IMG/VR virus record: IMGVR_UViG_3300020220_000046
Location: 1 to 62,051 of that record
Direction: 5' to 3' (one strand)
Source of the DNA: a virus
Taxonomy: Duplodnaviria; Caudoviricetes
Length of the DNA: 62,051 nt
A program made the translations under genes and the position numbers. Each line of letters begins with the position of its first letter. Position 1 is the first letter of the stretch. The notes under the pieces are model-generated. The model did not search any database. It was not told the origin of the DNA and worked only from the letters and a program-made list of their open reading frames with translations. Positions 27,234 to 58,082 of the stretch are shown here, one piece after another.

Positions 27234-28172
27234 CTAATCTAATTTAAATTCAGGATACTCTATAAGGTTACCCTGAAGGTCGGCGATATCTTTATCTTTT
27301 GGTAATTTAACAATATAAACCTTACCCATTAGGTTTCCACAATTGATTTTGTGATATAATCTCTCCGCATCGCCCCAAGCGTCTCCATCCAAAATAATTG
27401 TTAAACTATCTGCGTTTTCATAAACTTTTTTGAATAGTAAATCACCAATATACTTACCCAACATTGGTATAGAATTGGGTAAAAATATGGAATCAAATAC
27501 ACCCTCAACCAAGCATACTCTTTTTTTCCAATCAATCAAGTGTTCATTCCATATAATATTCTCTTTTTGTACGTCAGGGTTTTTATATTTCATCTTAGTT
27601 CTCGACAAATATGAACGTGCAATGAAATAATTGACATACTTGCTCTCATCATATGAAGGTATAATTATTCTATTTGCGTATGGACCATCATAACAGAATC
27701 CGATATTATATTTTTGAATCATCTCTTCATTGATGTTTCTACTTTTAAGATACCCAAACGCTTGTTTGTGGTGATGAGTAAGTTTTAGACCGGGTGACAC
27801 ATCTAATATTGGTATAAACTCTTTTGGTAATCGTATAATTTTCTTTACATTTTGTGCATATTCAATATCTTCCGGCTTTAAAAGTTCATATCTTTTAATG
27901 TGTTTTTGTGTCCCATATTTTTTTATTAGTTTGTGTAAGGACCCGTGTGTTTCGTGTGTTTCCGCACATGACCAACATTTAAAAACACCTCTTTTATAGT
28001 TTATTTCAAGGTTACCTTTACCATCACCACGCTCAAGTCCTTTAATGTCATATGAACATACAGGACAATCAAAAGATATCTGACCTTTGTAATCATTGTG
28101 CATACGATAATCACCAAGGATATCCTCGATGATTTCAATTATTGGTTTGTATTCCGCAGACACAGATGACAT
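27234..28172 (-). CDS. dnaG: DNA primase (Zn finger plus TOPRIM)
   Basis: CPVC...CWSC, YLKSR.I, RIIIP, KYKNP, LVEGVFD, LDGDA, KDIAD. Confidence 0.88.
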   Translation of the reverse strand: MSSVSAEYKPIIEIIEDILGDYRMHNDYKGQISFDCPVCSYDIKGLERGDGKGNLEINYKRGVFKCWSCAETHETHGSLHKLIKKYGTQKHIKRYELLKPEDIEYAQNVKKIIRLPKEFIPILDVSPGLKLTHHHKQAFGYLKSRNINEEMIQKYNIGFCYDGPYANRIIIPSYDESKYVNYFIARSYLSRTKMKYKNPDVQKENIIWNEHLIDWKKRVCLVEGVFDSIFLPNSIPMLGKYIGDLLFKKVYENADSLTIILDGDAWGDAERLYHKINCGNLMGKVYIVKLPKDKDIADLQGNLIEYPEFKLD

Positions 28173-28213
28173 ATGGAATAATATAAGAAAAAAAAGTGAA
28201 AAAACAAACGAGC

Positions 28214-28247
28214 AAAAAAAGGACGGGGGTTACACCGTGCCCCCGCC
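28214..28247 (-). terminator. Rho-independent terminator
   Basis: GGCGGGGG, 10-nt loop, CCCCCGUCC, then U7. Confidence 0.8.
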
Positions 28248-28346
28248 TATACGGCTCCACCATTGTTACCAGTATATCCTGGCAACAAATATTTCAGGTT
28301 TTTGGGTTGGTTGACCAACCACGTATATTTCTATACGTCCCGTACT
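28214..28346 (-). ncRNA. Candidate structured non-coding RNA or attenuator
   Basis: No credible ORF. Three hairpins are enclosed by a closing helix and followed by a GC terminator hairpin and U7; TATTTAT lies immediately upstream (28350-28356). Confidence 0.6.
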
Positions 28347-28376
28347 TAAATAAATATAATTAAAATTTTTTTAAAA

Positions 28377-28985
28377 TCAATAATGTTTTGTGGTTTTTTG
28401 CATATTAACATATCCTATGACCGCGGTTGCTGCGTCACTCATATCATAATTTTCTTTTTTTAAGTTACCTGTTTTACCATATAACCATTTTATTTCAGGA
28501 CAAACTTCGTTTACGTGTTCCCATATGATATGTTTTTTGTCTATATCTTTTGGTAGTCCACCAAATAGTACATTTTTTCCTTTATCGTTTTGTCCAACTA
28601 AACTTGGAAACGCAAATTTTCTTGCATTGTATGTGGAAATAAATATTGGTATAACACCCAATACATCATAACACGCCCTTAATATCAAAGTGTTGTATCT
28701 TAAAAGTGTACCAATCGTATAGATATTGTTTGATTGTAATAATGGTTCCTCAATTACCACTTCAGTAATTCCAACATCTTTATAATTTTCTATATGCTTT
28801 TTAAACGCATCTGATTTTTTTACCAACTCTTCAATCTTCTCTTCGGGTTGTGGTTTTATTTTGGGTGAAAAGTGGGTCAATTCCAATAGTTTAGAAGAAT
28901 TGATATCAAACAAAGCCCATCCTATTGTTTTTGTAGAAATATCTAACCCCAAAATTTTTGGGGCATTTTTTAATTTTAAACTCAT
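28377..28985 (-). CDS. RuvC-like Holliday junction resolvase
   Basis: ILGLDIST..IGWA, VVIEEP and YDMSDA acidic motifs. Confidence 0.8.
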   Translation of the reverse strand: MSLKLKNAPKILGLDISTKTIGWALFDINSSKLLELTHFSPKIKPQPEEKIEELVKKSDAFKKHIENYKDVGITEVVIEEPLLQSNNIYTIGTLLRYNTLILRACYDVLGVIPIFISTYNARKFAFPSLVGQNDKGKNVLFGGLPKDIDKKHIIWEHVNEVCPEIKWLYGKTGNLKKENYDMSDAATAVIGYVNMQKTTKHY

Positions 28986-29024: not shown

Positions 29025-31172
29025 TTAGAAGTCTAGATTTACAGAAAATACTTGAGTACCAACTCTTTTAACGGGATTAACTGCTTTTGCAACCACTAAT
29101 GGTTCTTTATTACTATTGAGTAAAACAATTTCAGTTATTCTTTTATCCATACCCGTCACATAGGTTGGATTTTGTGTAACATTAAATTGTGATGTTGGTA
29201 AATTAACTAAGAAACTCATTCTTTCCACATCGATTGCTCTTACTACTCTTACACTACCAGGGAATGGTTGTTCATCTCCAAATTGTGGAAGTGTCGATGG
29301 TTGGTCGGGTACATTATCCAAAAATGTCTCAATATCATATGGGGTTGCGCCTGTGTACATTGGGTTAGTAATGATAATTGAGTTACTTGTTAATCCTGTT
29401 TGGTTAATTAATTGACCAACAGTATGTCCTGTAATAAAAGATGTATAATTGATTCTTTTCCAAGCATCGTGTGTTGGTAAGTCATTTAATGATGTTATTT
29501 GAACAAGAACTTGGAATTCATTTGCAATGTGACCAGTTGTTGCACCATTACATAAAGTTGTTGACTTTAAGAATGGAAAACTTCCATTATCAAAATTGAT
29601 GTACAATTGTGATGGTCTAACCAAACATGGGTCATCGGATTGAACATCTACTCTTGAAAAATAATTACATGGTAGACCATTTAGCGCGGTGTCTCCCGTG
29701 TAGTTAAACATATATGTTACCCAAACGGTTTGACCCGATGTTGAACCCGTGAAGAACGATTGAGTGGCACTTGCATCACTTGGTACCAATGCAACTTTTG
29801 GTGCCGGTAATGTATATTTTCTATTCGATTTATAATCAAGTACCGCAACCAATTCTTGGTCATCAAATACAATAGTTTTGTTATTTACAAATACTTTACC
29901 AACTCCATAACCTTGTTCGTCTAAAAGATATCTGAACTTCAATAATTGATTTGAATTTTTTAAAGACTTCATAAAATAATCGGTAGTATCCATTGAGAAC
30001 ATTGCTCCGATTGTGGTTCCTGTGTTTCTGTGATATTGAATAAATGGTATGTAAACTTGGAAATATTCTAAATCAGTAATTTCATTGCCTAAGTCGTCTT
30101 CCAATAATGCATCCGCGGGAACGTTATTTGTACTGCTGTAATCGTCATATTTGAAAAATCTCTCTGTGTCATTTTTTAAATCACCCAACTCAGAATAATG
30201 AATAATTGCCACACATCTTTGTTCTTCAGGTTTTACAATTATCTTTTCATCATAAGCATTATAGAAAGATGTTACACCAGTGATTGTTCCACCCGTTGCA
30301 TTCACCCAAGTTTGCCCACTTGAAGTTGTGTATCCTAAAAATTGTTTTGTTGAAACGTATTTGTTTGATGTGAATCCGGTTAAACTTTCATCCGTTGTTG
30401 GGACATCAAATCCAATTGGTTTTTTACCCCAAACAACGTTTAATGTCCATGAATTAAGTTGTTGGGATGGGTCAATCTCTTGTGGTCTACAATTAGAGTT
30501 AATTGGTTCTACTGGATATTCGTTTTCACAAGAATTACAAATTACTTGTGCGTTACCACTACAAGATGAAAGATTAGGTAAATTTCTGTCAAGTGTAATT
30601 GTGTTTCCACTTACACTCATTACCTGATATATCAAACTATTTGATTGTCCTGAAATAACAGGATGAAGTGGGTCTGTTCCTGTAAACGTTGTAAATGCAA
30701 TTGTAATAAAATCACAATCATTAAAACTTGAACCCGTAGGTACAACAATTGTGTTTGTTCCTGTAATTGCTGAGAGTGGAACTAATTGTGTTGTACATTC
30801 TATTGTTGTTCCTGTACATCCTACAGCATCATAATCTTTATATTCCGTAACAAATCCTGCAGGACCCATTACATTTCTTATTGTCTCTGTTGTAGAAAAT
30901 TCAATCGGTACACCATATGTTGTTGTACCTGTGGCAGAATCTAACTTATACGGGTATTTTACCCCCCCTTCTTTATCAAAAGGTGAGAATACCGATTGAT
31001 GGGGTACACCCGCCAATCCAGTAAGTCCTGTAAATGGGTTTGTGTAATCAAACTCGGAATCTCCGATTTGGAAATAAGATATGACAAAATTACCCTTAGC
31101 AATAGAATTTCTTCCCTTTTGGGTTATTCTTGCTGATAAAAATTCCGAATTATTATTACTTAAAAAACTCAT
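29025..31172 (-). CDS. Virion structural protein (tail/baseplate)
   Basis: N-terminal ARITQKGR...ISYFQIGDSE.DY and C-terminal ITEIVLLN...LVVAK...PV, which resemble tail/baseplate proteins; TATTTAT upstream. Confidence 0.65.
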   Translation of the reverse strand: MSFLSNNNSEFLSARITQKGRNSIAKGNFVISYFQIGDSEFDYTNPFTGLTGLAGVPHQSVFSPFDKEGGVKYPYKLDSATGTTTYGVPIEFSTTETIRNVMGPAGFVTEYKDYDAVGCTGTTIECTTQLVPLSAITGTNTIVVPTGSSFNDCDFITIAFTTFTGTDPLHPVISGQSNSLIYQVMSVSGNTITLDRNLPNLSSCSGNAQVICNSCENEYPVEPINSNCRPQEIDPSQQLNSWTLNVVWGKKPIGFDVPTTDESLTGFTSNKYVSTKQFLGYTTSSGQTWVNATGGTITGVTSFYNAYDEKIIVKPEEQRCVAIIHYSELGDLKNDTERFFKYDDYSSTNNVPADALLEDDLGNEITDLEYFQVYIPFIQYHRNTGTTIGAMFSMDTTDYFMKSLKNSNQLLKFRYLLDEQGYGVGKVFVNNKTIVFDDQELVAVLDYKSNRKYTLPAPKVALVPSDASATQSFFTGSTSGQTVWVTYMFNYTGDTALNGLPCNYFSRVDVQSDDPCLVRPSQLYINFDNGSFPFLKSTTLCNGATTGHIANEFQVLVQITSLNDLPTHDAWKRINYTSFITGHTVGQLINQTGLTSNSIIITNPMYTGATPYDIETFLDNVPDQPSTLPQFGDEQPFPGSVRVVRAIDVERMSFLVNLPTSQFNVTQNPTYVTGMDKRITEIVLLNSNKEPLVVAKAVNPVKRVGTQVFSVNLDF

Positions 31173-33670: not shown

Positions 33671-36600
33671 TTATATACAATGTCCAACAGCGGCGGTTAT
33701 GTACACAGTTGAATTGCAAGGTATATCCACATCATAAAACACAACTGTACTTCCACCAGTATTCAACGGATAAAAACATTGTATTCCATAATTAATGGCA
33801 ATATTTTGTCCAGCTAAACACGGACCATAGTCAATTTCAACCGTTACATTTGAACCATTAACATTGGATGTGAAGAACCCAACCCCATCACCTTGCCCAA
33901 TCGGGAAATTAGCACCACTTGAGTAAGTTATATTATTGGAATTGAATCTAACTCCGAGTATAGTAACATTATTACTATTTTGTGTAGTTACCTCAACAAA
34001 TGCAAATGGACAAGAAAATGTACTAGGTGTACTAGTTAATGTTGGTGTTAGTGTTGGTGTATTTGTTAGTGTTGGTGTGTTTGTAGCAGTTAAAGTTGGT
34101 GTATTTGTAGCAGTTAATGTTGGTGTATTTGTTGCAGTTAATGTTGGTTCTTCAGATGTTAGTGTTTGAGTACTTGTTAGTGTTGGTGTATTTGTAGCAG
34201 TTAATGTTGGTGTAGCAGTTAATGTTGGAGTACTTGTTAGTGTTGGTGTATTTGTAGCAGTTAATGTTTGAGTACTTGTTAAAGTAGGTGTATTAGTAGC
34301 CGTTAACGTTGGCGTATTTGTTGCAGTACTTGTACTTGTTAAAGTAGGCGTATTTGTCAATGTAGGTGTATTTGTAGCTGTAAGTGTTGGAGTATTTGTT
34401 GCAGTACTTGTACTAGTTAGTGTTGGTGTATTTGTGGCTGTAAGTGTTGGAGTATTTGTTGCAGTACTTGTACTAGTTAGTGTTGGTGTATTTGTAGCCG
34501 TTAACGTTGGCGTATTTGTTGCGGTACTTGTGCTGGTTAATGTTGGGGTTTGAGTTGCTGTAAGTGTCGGAGTCTCAGTTAATGTTGGCGTATTTGTTGC
34601 AGTAAGAGTGGGTGTATTGGTTGCAGTACTTGTACTAGTTAATGTTGGCGTATTTGTTGCAGTTAGAGTAGGTGTATTGGTTGCAGTACTTGTACTAGTT
34701 AATGTTGGGGTTTGAGTTGCAGTTAGAGTAGGTGTATTGGTTGCAGTACTTGTACTAGTTAATGTTGGAGTATTGGTTGCGGTAAGTGTCGGAGTCTCAG
34801 TTAGTGTTGGAGTATTGGTTGCGGTAAGTGTCGGAGTCTCAGTTAGTGTTGGTGTATTTGTGGCAGTTAATGTTGGAGTATTTGTTGCAGTACTTGTGCT
34901 AGTTAAAGTAGGTGAATTTGTTGCAGTAAGAGTGGGTGTATTTGTGGCAGTACTTGTACTTGTTAAAGTAGGCGTATTTGTTGCAGTTAATGTTGGAGAG
35001 TTGGTTGGTGTTAATGTTGGTGTTTCAGTTAGTGTTTGAGTATTAGTCGGCGTTAATGTTGGCGTTTCAGTTAACGTAGGTGTACTAGTTGCTGTAAGGG
35101 TCGGTGTTTTAGTTAATGTTGGAGTATTAGTTGAACTTAATGTAGGGGTATTGGTTGCGGTTAATGTTGGTGTATTTGTTGCAGTAAGAGTGGGTGTTTG
35201 AGTACTTGTTGATGTAACAGTAGCGGTTGGTGTGGGCGTTGGACAATCTGTTGAACTATTTGCAATTGCCAAACCACTTCCGTTATCTTCAACAACAAAT
35301 AGTATTGAAGTGCTTGGTGGGTTTACATAAAAGATGGTTGATGACGAATTTGTGATAAGTTGTAAATCTGCAATTGTGTATGGATTTGTTGCTGTGTTAT
35401 CTTCGTATAATATTTCACCAACAGATAAATCGTCTTGTGCATAAATTGTTATAGAATTTTGACAAGAACATGCACTACTAATTGTAATATCAATACAATA
35501 GATTGCTCCATCTAATAAATTAGTAAGAGTTGGAGTATTGGTTGCGGTAAGGGTTGGTGTCTCCGTTAATGTAGGTGTATTCGTAGGTGTTTGAGTTTGA
35601 GTCTCTGTAGGGGTATTAGTTGCCGTTAATGTAGGTGTACTTGTTGCAGTTAACGTCGGAGTATTGGTTGGTGTTTCGGTTGGTGTACTTGTTGCAGTTA
35701 ACGTCGGAGTATTTGTTGATGTACTTGTTGCAGTTAACGTCGGAGTATTTGTTGATGTACTTGTTGCAGTTAACGTCGGAGTGCTTGTACTAGTTAAAGT
35801 AGGTGTATTGGTTGCAGTAAGAGTGGGTGTAGCGGTAAGGGTTGGAGTTTCAGTTGAAGTTAATGTTGGTGTATTTGTTGCTGTAAGGGTTGGAGTTTCA
35901 GTTGAAGTTAACGTAGGTGTTTCTGTTAACGTTAGTGTATTTGTGGCTGTTAATGTAGGTGTTTCAGTATTTGTAGGTGTAAGTGTTGGTGTATTTGTTG
36001 CAGTGCTTGTACTAGTTAAAGTAGGTGTATTGGTTGCAGTAAGAGTGGGTGTATTTGTTGCAGTGCTTGTACTAGTTAGTGTTGGGGTTTGAGTTGCAGT
36101 AAGAGTGGGTGTATTTGTTGCGGTACTTGTGCTGGTTAAAGTAGGTGTATTAGTAGATGTAAGTGTTGGCGTATTTGTTGCGGTACTTGTGCTGGTTAAA
36201 GTAGGTGTATTTGTTGCAGTGCTTGTACTAGTTAAAGTAGGTGTATTAGTAGCTGTAAGTGTTGGTGTATTTGTTGCAGTGCTTGTACTAGTTAAAGTAG
36301 GTGTATTGGTTGCAGTAAGAGTAGGTGTATTTGTTGCGGTACTTGTACTAGTTAAAGTAGGTGTACTTGTGGCTGTTAGTGTATTAGTTGATGTTGGCGT
36401 ACTTGTGGATGTAAGAGTTATTGTTGGAGTACTAGTATAGGTTGATGTATTCGTGTTTGTTAATGTTGGAGTACTTGTTGATGTGATAGTAGGAGTTGGT
36501 GTTAGTGTTTGTGTGCTAGTTGGTGTGGGTGTGTTTGTGGGAGATTGGTCGCAATCAAATGGTGATTCAGATAAATCATTATTGGTTGGTGGTGTTGCAC

Positions 36601-39600
36601 AATGTACGGGGTCACTATAATATTGACCTAAATCAAAATCAATATTTGGATGTTTATTGTATAGATGTTTCATCAAAATTTGTTCATTTGAATTACCATC
36701 AAATACAACAATAAATGTATCAGTCAATGGTGAACCATTTTTTTGAACATTTAAGTTAAAATATAAACCAGTGTCACAATAATTTAGGTCAACCGCTAAA
36801 ACTTCTATTGGATAACCATATTGGTTAATTAGAAAATCTCCTTTATCATATAATTCTTTGGAGTGGTCGCAGCAAGGTTCGATGAAATCAATCGGTCTTA
36901 TTTGTAATTCTTCAGGGAATCTATCATCAAAGTGATATGTTCCATTCGTTACAGAACCGAAATTCTCAATAAATTTATTTGTATAAACCCTTAATTGAGT
37001 TGTAGGTAAAACTTCAAATATTTCAATACTATTTGTTGTTGTTTCACCTGTAATTCTATTTTTCTTAACAGAACCAAGACATTCTTTATCAGTAACTAAA
37101 AGTTTTTCATACGAATACGTAAATGAATATCCACTTTGAGATGCATTTTGGAATTGTTGATTCGTAAATCCTGAACAAGGAAGATAATTTGCACTTAAAA
37201 TGTATTCACCTACTTGTAAACCATATACAGATTTTTCTACAATCGTACCACCTGTTAAATATGAATTAATTTGTGAACTTGTTGTTGAACTATTAATTGT
37301 TAAACCTGAAGGAACCACTAAAACTATTGAACTATCTTTTAAACCATAATTAAAGTTTGATTTATACTCAACTTTTGGTTGGATGGTATATCCAGTATAA
37401 TTGTCACAAAACGTTGCTCCTGATATTTCAGATATAGTATTTGAACCTTGATATCCTTGAAGTACAAATAGTTCTGTGTGACTCTTTCCGCTTGGCATTG
37501 GACATGGGTCGTGTTCTATTTTAGCTTGTAATCCTTCTATCTTGAATTTAACTTCGTTGTTTGCGGCATCAATAATATTAAAATCTATTACATCAAATTC
37601 AGTAACTCCAGTTAGTTTAAATTTACAATCATACCCCGCAACTTTTTCAATGTAAACGTCAGCATTTTGACTATGACCACTTGTACAATTTGCATAAATG
37701 TAAAACGGCCATGTGTGATTTTTTTGAACCCCGAATTGAGCACCAATAACATCAATATAGATGTCACTAACCATAATACACGATGCTGGCTCTTCACAAT
37801 AAAATTCACCATTACCACTAACTTGTACACTTAATCTATCATTTGATTTTATTGTCTGATAATCCGCCTCAAATCTATAATCAAAATAATCTTTTACCGA
37901 ACAATTCCCAATACCATATTTTATGGATGAAAACTTAATCATTTCTTCACCATTTTCATCTGTAAAGATTTCATAACTTACCATTGGTAAAGTTTCGGTT
38001 ACATATGTTTGTCCGGTTGTTCCTGTGAATGGTGCGTAAGCATAGTAACCTGAACCATATCTTGATATTGTTATTGAACCAATAAGATTAGTCAACGCTT
38101 CAACCCATAGTTGTTTAATTTTAACAATATCAGGTTCTAAATAATCTTTATAATCACAAATAAGTGCAAGATTTACAGGGTCATTACTCACTAAGTCGGT
38201 ACATCCCGTCATTGGGAATGGGTCATATAACTTAGCACTATTTGTTGTATTTGATGTACCGCTAACCACAACAGTCATTCCTGTTGTTAAACCTGTATAT
38301 GATGGACCACCATAAATAACCCCATCAATTTCGATTATTGGATAGTATGTTACACCAGTCAAGTTTATTAATCCTCTAAAATTATTTTCTTCACCGAGTA
38401 AAGTTTCAACGTCTTCTTCAATTGCGGTTTCAAAATCGGGATATAAGTCCTCGATAAATTCCATTGGTTGGCAATCAAATATGTATGGATATTTCGGTCT
38501 ACCAAATAAATTGTTTTCTATTAGATTACCTCCTGTCCACAGTGTAGTTGCGGGAACCAATTGTTCTACTAATTGAACCCAATAAGGGCTGATTTTATTT
38601 ACAAATTCAGCAGCATCAATAAACGTATATGGTTTGAATGAAGTTTGAGAAAAATAATCTCTATAGATATCTTCAAGAACAATATAATTCTTTTTATATC
38701 TAATTGTATGAGAGTTCTTTATTACTTTGTGAATAAAATTGTTTGTAAATTGTGCAAACGTTACCCCTGTTTGTGGTGATAATAAATTTGTTGAACCGAA
38801 TGAAATTTCTAAATCTCTACTTTTTCTAAATAAATCAAAATTAATCGCGTTAGACGCTGAAATATGAATATTAATATTTTTTCTATTCAAAATTAAAGAC
38901 GAACCATCCAATACATCGTGAGCTTTTGTATTGTCAATATCTGTTTGTAAACCATAACCCGTATCTAATCCGGGTAGTTTTCTGAACACGTTAAAATAAT
39001 CCTCACCATAAGTAAAAGGTTTATTTTTTGTTTTAATTGTTTTTGTTCTACCAGTGAGAATTGAGTTTTCGGTATCTATAATCGTTGGTGAGCGGTGGTC
39101 TAATGTAATATCATACCATCCCGCACCTTTTTGGAAGAAAATGTCTTCAGTAAGACTAAACGCTTTTCTTGGTAACCCTGTGTCAGGGTCAACAGGATAA
39201 CCTTCTCTATCAAATCCTGTTGAGCCAGTGGTGGTAATCTTAGTATATGTGTACCCTGTTGTATTAAATTGACCCGTTATAAAAGTTTTTTCTCCAACAA
39301 TAACATTGTATATGTCTTGTTCTAAATCAAAACTCACGGGCATTGATGTTACTTGATAGACATACTCATTAATTTTTATTAATGGTTCGGGAGCTCCTAA
39401 GAATTTTAAGAAGAACTCAATAGATGCTCTTGTTCCTTTTGATTTAAAGATATATGCAAGATTGACTAATAATCTTCTGTAGAATTCATGTTCGGCATCA
39501 ACTAAATTAAAACCAGTGGATACTCCACCATAAGACGAATCTAAACGAGTATATAATACATCGTCTAATGATTTTTCATCAAATAGATTTGTAGTTGATA

Positions 39601-40798
39601 ACCCGAGATTCTCAGATAAATTCTTTAATAAAATATCGGGTAAGTTATTAATACCATCATAACTCACATTTCTCATGTAAGCAATGTTGTCTATGTATTT
39701 TTTTACTTGGTCAAAACTTTGTCCGTAAAGTTGAAATACACTTTGAGCTCTTTGGTCTGCGGTGTCAAATTCTAATAATTGTGGTGATGTTAAAAATCTA
39801 ACAATTGTGTTTGATTTAAATGTATCAATCTCATCACAAACATCTTTTAAACTTTGTACATATAATTCATAGTCAAGACCATAAATTTGTATGTTCCATC
39901 CATCCCCTAATGTTGGCCAGCTAAACTCAACGTTTTGAATTGTAACCTTTGAACCATCGGGACTATCTCTCGGAATTCTAAAATTTGATGTGTATGTTGG
40001 GCTTGTATCTCTATTGAGTAATGAAGATTCAACATCATCTAATCCATTGTAAAATTCTTCAACAATACCATCATTTGGTCTGATTATAAAGTTTGTTGTA
40101 CTTGTAGAACCTGTAAATGGTTGACCAATTACAACAAAAACTATTTCATTTGAAGAATTTGGCTCTGTATATTGAAATACAGGGTACGATTCGCCATTTA
40201 TATATAAAACATACTTATTGTTTGATGAATATAGATTTCTTAATTCATTTTCACTTGTAGGTTTAATCGCACTATTTGGTTCAGATAAAATAATTCCAAA
40301 TGGATTTGAAACTTTACTTAACTGAATTGTGAATGTTGTTCTGTCTAAACTATTACTATATGAAATATTAAACGCTGAGAATAAGTTCACACCTATAGGA
40401 CTATCGGCAATTACTTGTAATGCTGCGGGGAATTTTTTTATAATTTTGGTAATCGATACCAAAATTCTTTCTCTTAAAGAACCATATAAAGACTTATCTG
40501 CATTTTGTTTATCGTTACGAAATCTTATCGATTTACTTCTTTTGGCCGCAGAACTTGTAGGTTGCTGAGTTGTTACGTCTGTTTTAGTGTCTTCTTTTTT
40601 TATATTATCTAAAGTAAGAAACTCAGAAAATGGATTTTTTCTAAAACTTTTAGAATCTTTATCAGGTATAGTTTTATCAATGTCAAATGAGGTATTAACA
40701 AGCGCCGAACTTCCGTTGGTAATTTGTCTACCAACAAGATTATCATTAAATGTTGCCGCGCCACTTGGCGCTTGGCTTGGTACCTTTCTTTTCGCCAT
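33671..40798 (-). CDS. Large baseplate wedge-like protein (2375 aa) with two mucin-like Thr-Pro tracts
   Basis: [18 protein letters not shown] resembles the gp7/P2-gpI wedge motif. It lies downstream of gp25- and gp6-like genes and carries ~750 aa of TPTLT repeats. Confidence 0.75.
34020..36543. repeat. Degenerate coding tandem repeats (TATNTPTL / [12 protein letters not shown]), interrupted by a ~95-aa domain at ~35240-35520
   Basis: Visible in both DNA and protein; 24- and 36-bp units. Confidence 0.92.
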
Positions 40799-57039: not shown

Positions 57040-58051
57040 TGGTTTTTATTTTAATTATTTTTTTATTTTTTTCTTTTCTTGTTAATCTTAAAAAGGGGTT
57101 TAAGAAGTTTATCCATGCATCATCTAACTTGGGAAGGAGAAGGAAGATTCCGTCTTCTGTCATCATTTTCATCATATTCTTATATGAACGTCCTTCGGGG
57201 TCTAATCGGTCGTTTATTAAGGAAATAATCGACTCCTTTGCTTCATCCGTTAGGAATGGTTCGTCAAGACTCACAATTCTATTATTGACATCAAAAAATT
57301 CCTCTCCAAATACTCCGTATTTGGTCACTCCAGTTAGAAGATTAGTGATAAGACGATTATCCTTGTCTTCCTCAAATAAGATGTTAAATCGGTCTCTAAT
57401 GAAGTCTAATGTAATTCCCTCGGTCTTTAGTTCGGGAACCATGGTGAGAAGTCTTCTGACACCAAGATTCTTTATACCTGCAATATTATCAGATGGGTCA
57501 CCACATAACATCTTTACAATTTTGATGTTCTCTATTCGAATCTCCTCGTGGTCATAGACAAACATATCGTTAGGTTGATACATTCGACTATGTGTGGGAT
57601 TGAATAGTCTTGTGTTCTCCGATACAAGTTGGGTAAGGTCTCCGTCAGATGAGAATATAATTATACCTTCATTTGAGTGTTGGACATAATATGCTATGGA
57701 ATCATCTGTTTCACAATAGTCGTATTCTCCTTGTCTCACAAACAACTCTTCGAGGTATTGTTTTACTCTATTTCGTTGTTGTCCGTAAGAGTGGACTTGT
57801 TCCTCACTTCTAATTCGTTCCCTTCTGTTTTCTTTATAGTGGTGGTAGTATCTTCTGCGAGATGATGAACCTTCTTTACCATCCCAAAATACCACTACCT
57901 TATCTAATCTATGTGTCTCAATAGCTCTTCTAAGAGTATTGATGAAGTGGTATAATCCACCAATATGATTACCCTTGTAAAAGTGATTCTTTAATCCAAA
58001 AAAACCAATGGTTAATAAATTATCTCCATCAACCAATAAAATATTAGACAT
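57032..58051 (-). CDS. 5'-3' exonuclease / T4 RNase H-like flap nuclease
   Basis: LLVDGDNL, VFWDG, YKENR, ETDD, SSDGDL.QL, GDPSDNIAGI. Confidence 0.92.
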   Translation of the reverse strand: MSNILLVDGDNLLTIGFFGLKNHFYKGNHIGGLYHFINTLRRAIETHRLDKVVVFWDGKEGSSSRRRYYHHYKENRRERIRSEEQVHSYGQQRNRVKQYLEELFVRQGEYDYCETDDSIAYYVQHSNEGIIIFSSDGDLTQLVSENTRLFNPTHSRMYQPNDMFVYDHEEIRIENIKIVKMLCGDPSDNIAGIKNLGVRRLLTMVPELKTEGITLDFIRDRFNILFEEDKDNRLITNLLTGVTKYGVFGEEFFDVNNRIVSLDEPFLTDEAKESIISLINDRLDPEGRSYKNMMKMMTEDGIFLLLPKLDDAWINFLNPFLRLTRKEKNKKIIKIKTND

Positions 58052-58082
58052 TTCGTCTTATGTAATTTTCCGTTAAACAATA

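Follow-up and report, generated by a model that had tools for sequence, protein, structure and literature searches.

The 62,051-nt virus record IMGVR_UViG_3300020220_000046 (Duplodnaviria; Caudoviricetes), analysed at its full length and called the window throughout, harbors a structured element on its minus strand, at about positions 28214 to 28356, between a Holliday-junction resolvase gene and a DNA primase gene. The element is the window's copy of an RNA family that combines two covarying hairpins with two invariant G/U-rich motifs. In the window this core is interrupted by a 63-nt insertion, which gives the RNA a predicted four-way junction. We favor, with moderate confidence, the interpretation that the locus is a stand-alone gene for a trans-acting small non-coding RNA (sRNA) of an undescribed family, with its own promoter and intrinsic terminator. 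This interpretation is based on the predicted promoter, the two covarying hairpins, the exposed G/U motifs, the strong terminator and a second predicted promoter in front of the primase gene.

Conservation of the element upstream of primase genes

A search based on the primase collected 145 loci, 65 from viral contigs and 80 from metagenomes, with primases 30 to 95% identical to that of the window. A hairpin with a GGTG loop followed by a T-run (T5 motif) lies upstream of the primase in 108 of them, and all 108 primases are at least 61% identical to the window's. The 37 loci without the element comprise all 33 with a primase at most 56% identical and four exceptions, namely L066, which is a partial match, L125, which has no upstream DNA, and L078 and L132, which have a different upstream gene. 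When viral contigs were scanned for the motif without regard to gene context, at least 119 loci came up, 81 of them with a well-formed hairpin; among these 81 as listed, the primase is directly downstream in 74 and the resolvase upstream in 67. Five records of 199 to 311 kb carry one copy each, and a single record among them has two additional weak matches (E 0.036 and 0.73). Bacterial and archaeal genomes gave at least 120 pattern loci. None of the matches listed places GTGGTG in a hairpin of 5 or more pairs, and no cellular homologue emerged among them.

The ancestral RNA is about 70 nt long and comprises, in order, a 5' segment G(A/G/U)CGGG, hairpin H1, a single-stranded (U)UGGUUGG linker, a G+C-rich hairpin H2 with the loop (G/U)UGGUG(U), and a U-run. 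Three classes can be distinguished. Class A has G(A/G)CGGGA, H1, UUUGGUUGG, H2 with the loop GUGGUG, and U9. Class W, the group of the window, has GUACGGG, H1, GGUUGG and H2 with the loop U(A/G/U)UGGUGU(A/G)A. Class B has a different H1 (loop GCAYWWG), followed by AUAAGG and H2 with the loop UUUUGGUGUAA. The GGUG loop core is present in every family member. An extended H1 of about 12 pairs with a larger loop was observed at L276 12109-12187, L351 5039-5117 and L293 1919-1997; the family therefore tolerates insertions at the tip of H1, besides the insertion at the linker seen in the window.

An H1-like hairpin, GUGGUUGG and a terminator with a GUGGUG loop also occur at three viral loci of a different phage type, which represent two distinct sequences and match the covariance model R1 described below with E ~1e-3. 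These distant look-alikes are located as follows.

L337, 5041-5131, minus strand
L304, 894-982
L296, 306-357

They lie beside small unknown open reading frames (ORFs) and a convergent GIY-YIG homing endonuclease gene, with no primase nearby. Thus, the family is not tied to the primase.

A search with Rfam 15 (4227 models) at gathering score gave no match in the whole window and none in 20 related loci (132.7 kb), and at E up to 10 both sets returned chance-level hits only, far below the gathering scores. This agrees with the first-pass annotation, made from the sequence alone, which had recognised no known family. Full-text literature searches found no description of the element, although word searches cannot prove absence from print.

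Covariation and strand of the RNA

RNAalifold applied to 16 sequences predicted H1 and H2, with 17 pairs, 12 of which show compensatory changes. The covariance model R1, built from these 16 sequences, recovered 63 distinct sequences, which form alignment A2. Standard pairs occupy 97.3% of the paired cells in A2, versus 64.8 ± 1.0% when the partners are shuffled, a level that none of 500 shuffles reaches. Cells with double changes number 336, versus 100 in the shuffles, and 14 of the 17 pairs show double (compensatory) changes. When the partners are slid by 1 to 3 columns, pairing falls to 38-56%. The covariation analysis of resolvase-primase gaps in relatives that the first-pass annotation had proposed thus bears out H1 and H2. 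The G-rich and C-rich arms of H2 change sides among members, and the loop and the GGUUGG linker stay constant. For an extended helix between the 5' segment and the linker (GAC with GUU), the model retains only the two G-U pairs adjoining H1.

G-U pairs are kept at three positions, in 52, 43 and 45 sequences of A2, respectively. The RNA strand is therefore the primase-sense strand, in line with the earlier proposal that G-U pairs favor the minus strand. A G-quadruplex was considered and rejected, as the loops of classes W and B have a single GG, so that four G-tracts are not conserved.

Predicted fold of the window copy and its insertion

The window copy bears all features of the family (H1, GGUUGG, the GGUG(U) loop in H2 and the U-run) and is placed, as in the family, between resolvase and primase on the primase strand. 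All helices named in the first-pass annotation (P1, P2, P3, P4 and the terminator) were found at the minus-strand coordinates it gave. The features of the RNA are listed below, from 5' to 3'.

28339..28346, minus strand: conserved 5' segment GUACGGG with the putative 5' end A28346; the covariance-model match starts at 28346, and G(A/G/U)CGGG is near-invariant in A2
28345-28340 with 28254-28249, minus strand: P1, GUACGG with CCGUAU, read from the sequence
28321..28338, minus strand: hairpin H1 (P2 of the first-pass annotation), ACGUAUA-GAAA-UAUACGU with a GAAA loop; helix 1 of A2, 7 pairs, 5 with compensatory changes, 98.8% of cells paired
28315..28320, minus strand: conserved linker GGUUGG, a near-invariant block in A2, single-stranded in relatives and here paired with the insertion (P3)
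28320-28305, minus strand: P3, GGUUGG-UCAA-CCAACC, read from the sequence
28252..28314, minus strand: lineage-specific insertion of 63 nt, absent from L067, L124 and every other locus
28288-28263, minus strand: P4 hairpin of 10 bp, within the insertion
28221..28247, minus strand: terminator hairpin H2, GGCGGGGG (28247-28240), loop CACGGUGUAA (28239-28230) and CCCCCGUCC (28229-28221); helix 2 of A2, 10 pairs, 9 with compensatory changes
28214..28220, minus strand: U7 tract, which finishes the intrinsic terminator; all listed family members have a T-run of 5-10 after H2

The minimum free energy structure computed by RNAfold is precisely the four-way junction plus terminator described earlier, at -51.4 kcal/mol. 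Two hundred dinucleotide shuffles gave -36.4 ± 4.0 (z -3.78), one of them folding equally well. Pair probabilities are at least 0.88 in P1, 0.93 in P2, 0.98 in P3 and, save for the outermost pair (0.67), 0.90 in P4. The plus strand folds almost equally well (-45.6, z -3.5); a single sequence therefore cannot fix the strand, and the conserved G-U pairs of the family do. ARAGORN found no tRNA. The loop of H2, CACGGUGUAA, bears the GGUGU motif of the family, and H2 is the sole GGTGT-loop terminator in the window, so that it does not represent the general terminator type of the phage.

The closest relatives, L067 and L124, have primases 95% identical to the window's, show no difference from it between the promoter and the end of GGUUGG, and lack window positions 28314-28252; L067 is thus identical to the window in promoter, 5' segment, H1 and linker. 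Their terminators are near-identical to that of the window, with few positions different. The insertion supplies the loop and 3' arm of P3 (CCAACC, 28310-28305), the A-rich linker, P4 and the CCG of the P1 3' arm, and also holds UGGUGGAG (28262-28255), which is unpaired in the predicted fold. The conserved 5' segment forms the P1 5' arm in the window only, and the UGGUUGG linker is buried by the insertion in the predicted fold. With R1 the window copy scores 21.8 bits (E 0.011-0.04, span 28346-28214), the insertion being treated as a long gap, whereas close relatives without insertion score 41-44 bits, with E of 4e-7 to 2e-6 for L067, L068, L072 and L073. A second, weak R1 match in the window (57998-58059, minus strand; 16.4 bits, E 0.2-0.75) is probably just another hairpin and T-run terminator.

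The insertion is real DNA, as contigs of runs X13 (27900-28389) and X14 (28171-28321), which are not flagged as source, match it with no differences. No second copy was found in the window or in the 145 loci; pattern scans of viral contigs found none, and phage records gave chance-level short hits only. The four-way junction is, from this sequence comparison, a lineage-specific product of the 63-nt insertion and not a feature of the family. Since the insertion has no homologue at these loci, P1, P3, P4 and the alternative pairings have no comparative evidence. The first-pass annotation had treated the junction as one self-contained unit with switch-like alternative pairing; neither part of that description has comparative support in the family, as the P3 3' arm, P4 and the CCG of P1 belong to an insertion lacking in homologues. 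When the insertion was shuffled 1000 times, the RNA folded at -41.0 ± 3.1, versus -51.4 for the native sequence, and no shuffle was as low, with most of the gain in P4. The pairing between linker and insertion is unremarkable, as it occurred in 477 of the 1000 shuffled insertions.

Run X15, from another lake metagenome, contains a 418-nt contig that matches only positions 28253-28313 (61 nt, 4 differences, 93% identity), with unrelated flanks on both sides. The module therefore exists in another context, and this match hints that the insertion might be a small mobile or reusable RNA module. Within the insertion, GAAAUAUUUGUUGCCAGGAUA (28296-28276) lies in antisense orientation to the conserved motif ATCCGGCAACTAATATTTC, with 19 of 21 positions matching (BLAST E ~0.5). 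In class-A phages (L026, L027 and L057 at ~2850-2869, L013 at 2852-2868) this motif lies at the resolvase stop codon and -33 region, ~45 nt upstream of the promoter box. The match may be due to chance.

Predicted promoter and transcription-unit signals

Three promoter-like features flank the RNA.

28378..28380, minus strand: TTG, a -33-like element that overlaps the resolvase stop codon, 19 nt from the TATATTTA box
28351..28358, minus strand: -7 box TATATTTA, of the Bacteroidota sigma-A type (TAnnTTTG-like), with the same box upstream of 50 of the 63 aligned members
28178..28208, minus strand: second promoter-like unit, for the primase, TTTG (28208-28205), 19 nt, TATATTAT (28185-28178), read from the sequence

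In those 50 members the TATATTTA box ends 4 to 7 nt before model position 1, which is the conserved 5' segment. L068, L072 and L073 retain the TTG at 19 nt from the box, and a sigma-70-type scan of the window returned TTGATT-16-TATATT at 28380..28353. The first-pass annotation had read the promoter motif as TATTTAT (28356-28350); a promoter-like box is present there, the better register being TATATTTA at 28358-28351. Its terminator, hairpin H2 plus U7, was also recovered. The sigma-A box of Flavobacterium psychrophilum, as given in PMC9723704, is TAnnTTTG at -12 to -5. By analogy with this position, the RNA would start at about A28346, the fifth nucleotide after the box, where the model match also begins.

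Five nucleotides separate the end of the TATATTAT box from the primase ATG. A TA..TT box, as matched by a permissive regular expression, lies 1 to 7 nt before the primase ATG in all 63 members. The primase mRNA is probably leaderless or provided with a 1-nt leader, judging from the box position. TATATTT-type boxes were also observed 1 to 5 nt before the ATG at the gene starts 28172, 21709, 51675, 24950 and 28985 (minus strand), which suggests that leaderless mRNAs may be common in this phage.

Proposed function and alternative explanations

We propose that the host-type promoter with the TATATTTA box would drive synthesis of the RNA, which would be ended by its own intrinsic terminator, and that the primase gene would start from the second box, probably as a leaderless mRNA. 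The RNA would be a trans-acting riboregulator or a protein-binding RNA. Its two covarying hairpins would serve as scaffold (H1) and terminator (H2), and the two invariant G/U-rich UGGUKG motifs, in the linker and in the terminator loop, would be exposed contact sites for a target RNA or protein. The window lineage would have gained the insertion between linker and H2; pairing with the linker (P3) and the 5' end (P1), adding P4 and bringing its own single-stranded UGGUGG, it would make the window copy fold as a four-way junction. The earlier annotation had suggested an undescribed late phage non-coding RNA. An undescribed structured RNA agrees with the covariation and the lack of an Rfam match; the term late is not supported, and the box resembles the host Bacteroidota sigma-A type rather than a special late signal.

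Several observations weigh against this interpretation. The covariance-model score of the window copy is weak, owing to its insertion. The -33 element is ill-defined in most class-A members, with TTTG in just 11 of the 63 sequences. The primase 5' region contains no conserved complement to the RNA, and ACCAACCAA is not enriched in at least four genomes of larger relatives when compared with a reversed control. A scan of translation starts in 65 ortholog groups gave best values of -7.8 and -8.0 kcal/mol, versus -7.3 and -6.6 for reversed seeds. The tight link to the primase (74 of the 81 well-formed loci listed) would equally suit a role in cis. Finally, the insertion hides the conserved linker in the window; if this motif is a working part, the window copy may be altered or impaired.

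One candidate target, a UUAACCAAA site in the 5' untranslated region of a 945-aa gene, is kept in 4 genomes; it was rejected as about what chance would give among 65 groups, the reversed control being nearly equal. Separately, the 8-mer ACCAACCA, the complement of UGGUUGGU in the RNA, occurs 13 times in the window versus 3.5 ± 2.0 expected, a count reached in none of 100 shuffles, with 6 and 7 copies on the two strands. This excess may reflect codon usage.

The main rival to a stand-alone sRNA is a promoter-proximal terminator cassette acting in cis in the manner of lambda PR'-tR', the short RNA being a by-product. A phage factor recognising loop and linker would then allow timed read-through into the primase, exonuclease and SbcD genes, as in the attenuator suggested by the first-pass annotation. 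The element is indeed directly upstream of the primase on the same strand in the 74 context-blind hits, the downstream genes form a tight same-strand block, and the conserved sequence lies in or just before the terminator hairpin, where a modulator of termination would act. However, in the window and its relatives another promoter-like box, preceded by TTTG at 19 nt, separates the terminator from the primase ATG, so that the primase would need no read-through. There is also no conserved antiterminator pairing, because the G-rich and C-rich arms of H2 swap sides among members. The terminators are strong (8 to 10 G+C-rich pairs, then U7-9) and related elements exist without a primase. We consider a cis cassette unlikely, although the primase link leaves the attenuator some credit; the second box weakens it.

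The element might instead be a replication-origin or priming signal, either as a G-rich transcript that provides an R-loop primer or as sense-strand DNA hairpins (GTGGTG / GGTTGG) that the phage primase would recognise in the way of single-strand initiation signals. It adjoins the primase gene amid replication and recombination genes, its G-rich non-template motifs come right after the promoter and are followed by a T-rich stretch, and the motifs contain GTT, which we take to be the start trinucleotide of T4-type primases. Yet the cumulative GC skew of the 311-kb relative does not turn at the element (~185.6 kb), its extremes being at 60 and 251 kb, and no repeats or iterons surround the element in the window. 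The many conserved G-U pairs and the hairpin-plus-U-run geometry are typical of RNA terminators, and an origin signal appears improbable.

A slightly weaker case can be made for a locus with no RNA function of its own, in which H2 would serve to terminate the operon upstream, H1 would be an accessory hairpin, and a regulator acting on both flanking promoters would bind the G/U motifs as DNA. The terminator does also close the resolvase-side operon, and a promoter-like box stands on either side of the conserved motifs. Against such DNA sites, the loop of a covarying hairpin is precisely where one conserved motif falls, covariation extends to H1 although this hairpin has no role in termination, the promoter box keeps a fixed 4 to 7 nt from the conserved 5' segment, and the pairing is strand-specific through its G-U pairs. 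We therefore give this explanation little weight.

A speculative variant, to which we likewise attach a low probability, is that the family acts as an RNA decoy or sponge. Its two or three invariant motifs with UGGU (in the UGGUUGGU linker and the GUGGUG loop) would capture the universal ...CACCA-3' ends of tRNAs, by analogy with the UGGN:NCCA pairing of T-boxes, or a host G/U-binding protein, and so reprogram or protect tRNAs or the translation apparatus of these jumbo phages, which are rich in tRNAs, the insertion being a small mobile RNA module. The insertion carries UGGUGGAGCC, which is antisense to the GGCUCCACCA-3' acceptor end.

Least probable is that the four-way junction itself functions as a riboswitch-like sensor or a ribozyme with switch-like alternative pairing, since its high predicted probability, the stability of the insertion relative to all 1000 of its shuffles and the potential pairing of GCCGU with ACGGU in the terminator loop are set against the absence of P1, P3 and P4 from all 144 other loci, including the nearest relatives, the lack of any Rfam riboswitch or ribozyme match, and a linker-insertion pairing that is common among shuffles.

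Comparison with known systems

DicF is a small two-hairpin RNA of phage origin with an intrinsic terminator, which acts in trans by short pairing; in enterobacterial prophages it results from the processing of a longer transcript. The family RNA has no homology to DicF and, unlike it, has a dedicated predicted promoter and belongs to phages of lytic jumbo type. The lambda PR'-tR' '6S' transcript (Q antitermination) combines a promoter with a strong terminator within ~70-200 nt, just upstream of a gene block, and the HK022 put RNAs form two promoter-proximal hairpins. The family element resembles the lambda unit in its promoter, nearby strong terminator and position upstream of a gene block. 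It differs from the Q cassette by the second promoter-like unit (TTTG-19 nt-TATATTAT) predicted after the terminator, which therefore does not stand between a sole promoter and the operon, by the conserved sequence in the terminator loop, and by the related elements away from the primase.

In T-box leaders, UGGN pairs with the NCCA end of a tRNA. The invariant motifs of the family contain UGGU, complementary to ACCA, and GGUGGU resembles what we take to be the T-box sequence core. However, T-box (RF00230) gave no hit at E up to 10, and the family has no specifier stem, no alternative antiterminator/terminator pairing and no position as the leader of an aminoacyl-tRNA-related gene.

The trans-acting sRNAs of the GibS/FopS type in Bacteroides thetaiotaomicron are, as described in PMC11697453, short RNAs with a sigma-A type promoter in a phylum without Hfq and CsrA. 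They act via a single-stranded seed plus a terminator, and FopS is said there to be deposited in Rfam (PMC11697453). Like these RNAs as they are portrayed in that source, the window RNA has a sigma-A type box (TATATTTA, in 50 of 63 relatives) and a Rho-independent terminator (hairpin plus U7), both recognised by sequence only. Unlike them, it matches no Rfam family at gathering score, with neither FopS nor GibS named in the low-threshold lists, is encoded by a phage, and has G/U-rich conserved segments (UGGUUGG, GUGGUG), one of which lies in the terminator loop. The RbpB motif in the form given by bioRxiv 10.1101/2021.04.27.441718, 5'-GUAGGAUA-3', does not match. The VIPR vrRNAs, according to the description in bioRxiv 10.64898/2026.04.26.720920, are phage-encoded intergenic RNAs of ~100 nt, rich in GGY motifs, with 9-16 tandem YNNGG repeats and a conserved tail. 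Identity with vrRNAs so described was rejected, as A2 shows no 5-nt periodic repeat tract.

Genomic context and phage

The structured element occupies part of a 204-nt gap between two minus-strand ORFs.

28377..28985, minus strand: upstream gene, RuvC-like Holliday-junction resolvase, 202 aa (PHROG phrog_159, E 8e-8)
27234..28172, minus strand: downstream gene, DnaG-type DNA primase, 312 aa (PHROG phrog_47, E 1e-36)

The primase gene is followed by exonuclease and SbcD-like genes (PHROG phrog_298 and phrog_100 for the next two genes), the genes 3' of the element forming the same-strand block mentioned above. The G+C content is 47% in the element versus 34% in the window, in accordance with the earlier description of a GC-rich element in an AT-rich genome. 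A 715-aa ORF near the locus (29025-31172) has no family match. Elsewhere in the window, a 2375-aa ORF (33671-40798, minus strand) is marked by an extended tract of repeats with a period of ~60 nt, with one 10-mer present ~20 times between 34126 and 36337, as seen from incidental BLAST hits.

The DNA of the 401-nt locus has no match in deposited phages. Several relatives are on contigs of 200-310 kb and are therefore jumbo phages. The closest cultured primase, 34% identical, is that of Flavobacterium phage immuto, which has only a plain terminator upstream of its primase and lacks the family element. Shine-Dalgarno sequences are absent before the window genes. Because of this absence and of the Flavobacterium origin of the nearest cultured primase, the host is probably a member of the Bacteroidota. 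The phages bearing the family form a clade of uncultured freshwater jumbo phages, 200-310 kb in size, and that of the window is a lake phage. The 311-kb relative (G003) carries 25 tRNA genes clustered at both contig ends (149-605 and 303528-310632), an arrangement that fits a jumbo phage genome with a large tRNA set that is near-complete or circularly permuted.

Implications

To our knowledge, very few small RNAs have been described from Bacteroidota phages and none from uncultured freshwater jumbo phages. The element represents a new RNA family whose general kind is known, and the window copy is an insertion variant with a lineage-specific fold. The comparative support is unusually clean, with 63 distinct sequences, covariation in both helices, invariant single-stranded motifs and a fixed place by replication genes, and the family is a candidate for a new Rfam family. 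The window copy is a natural "insertion mutant", in which one conserved motif is buried and a similar one gained, and thus offers a built-in test of which parts matter. It also illustrates that an attractive fold of a single sequence, such as a junction or a switch, can be a lineage-specific addition to a simpler conserved core.

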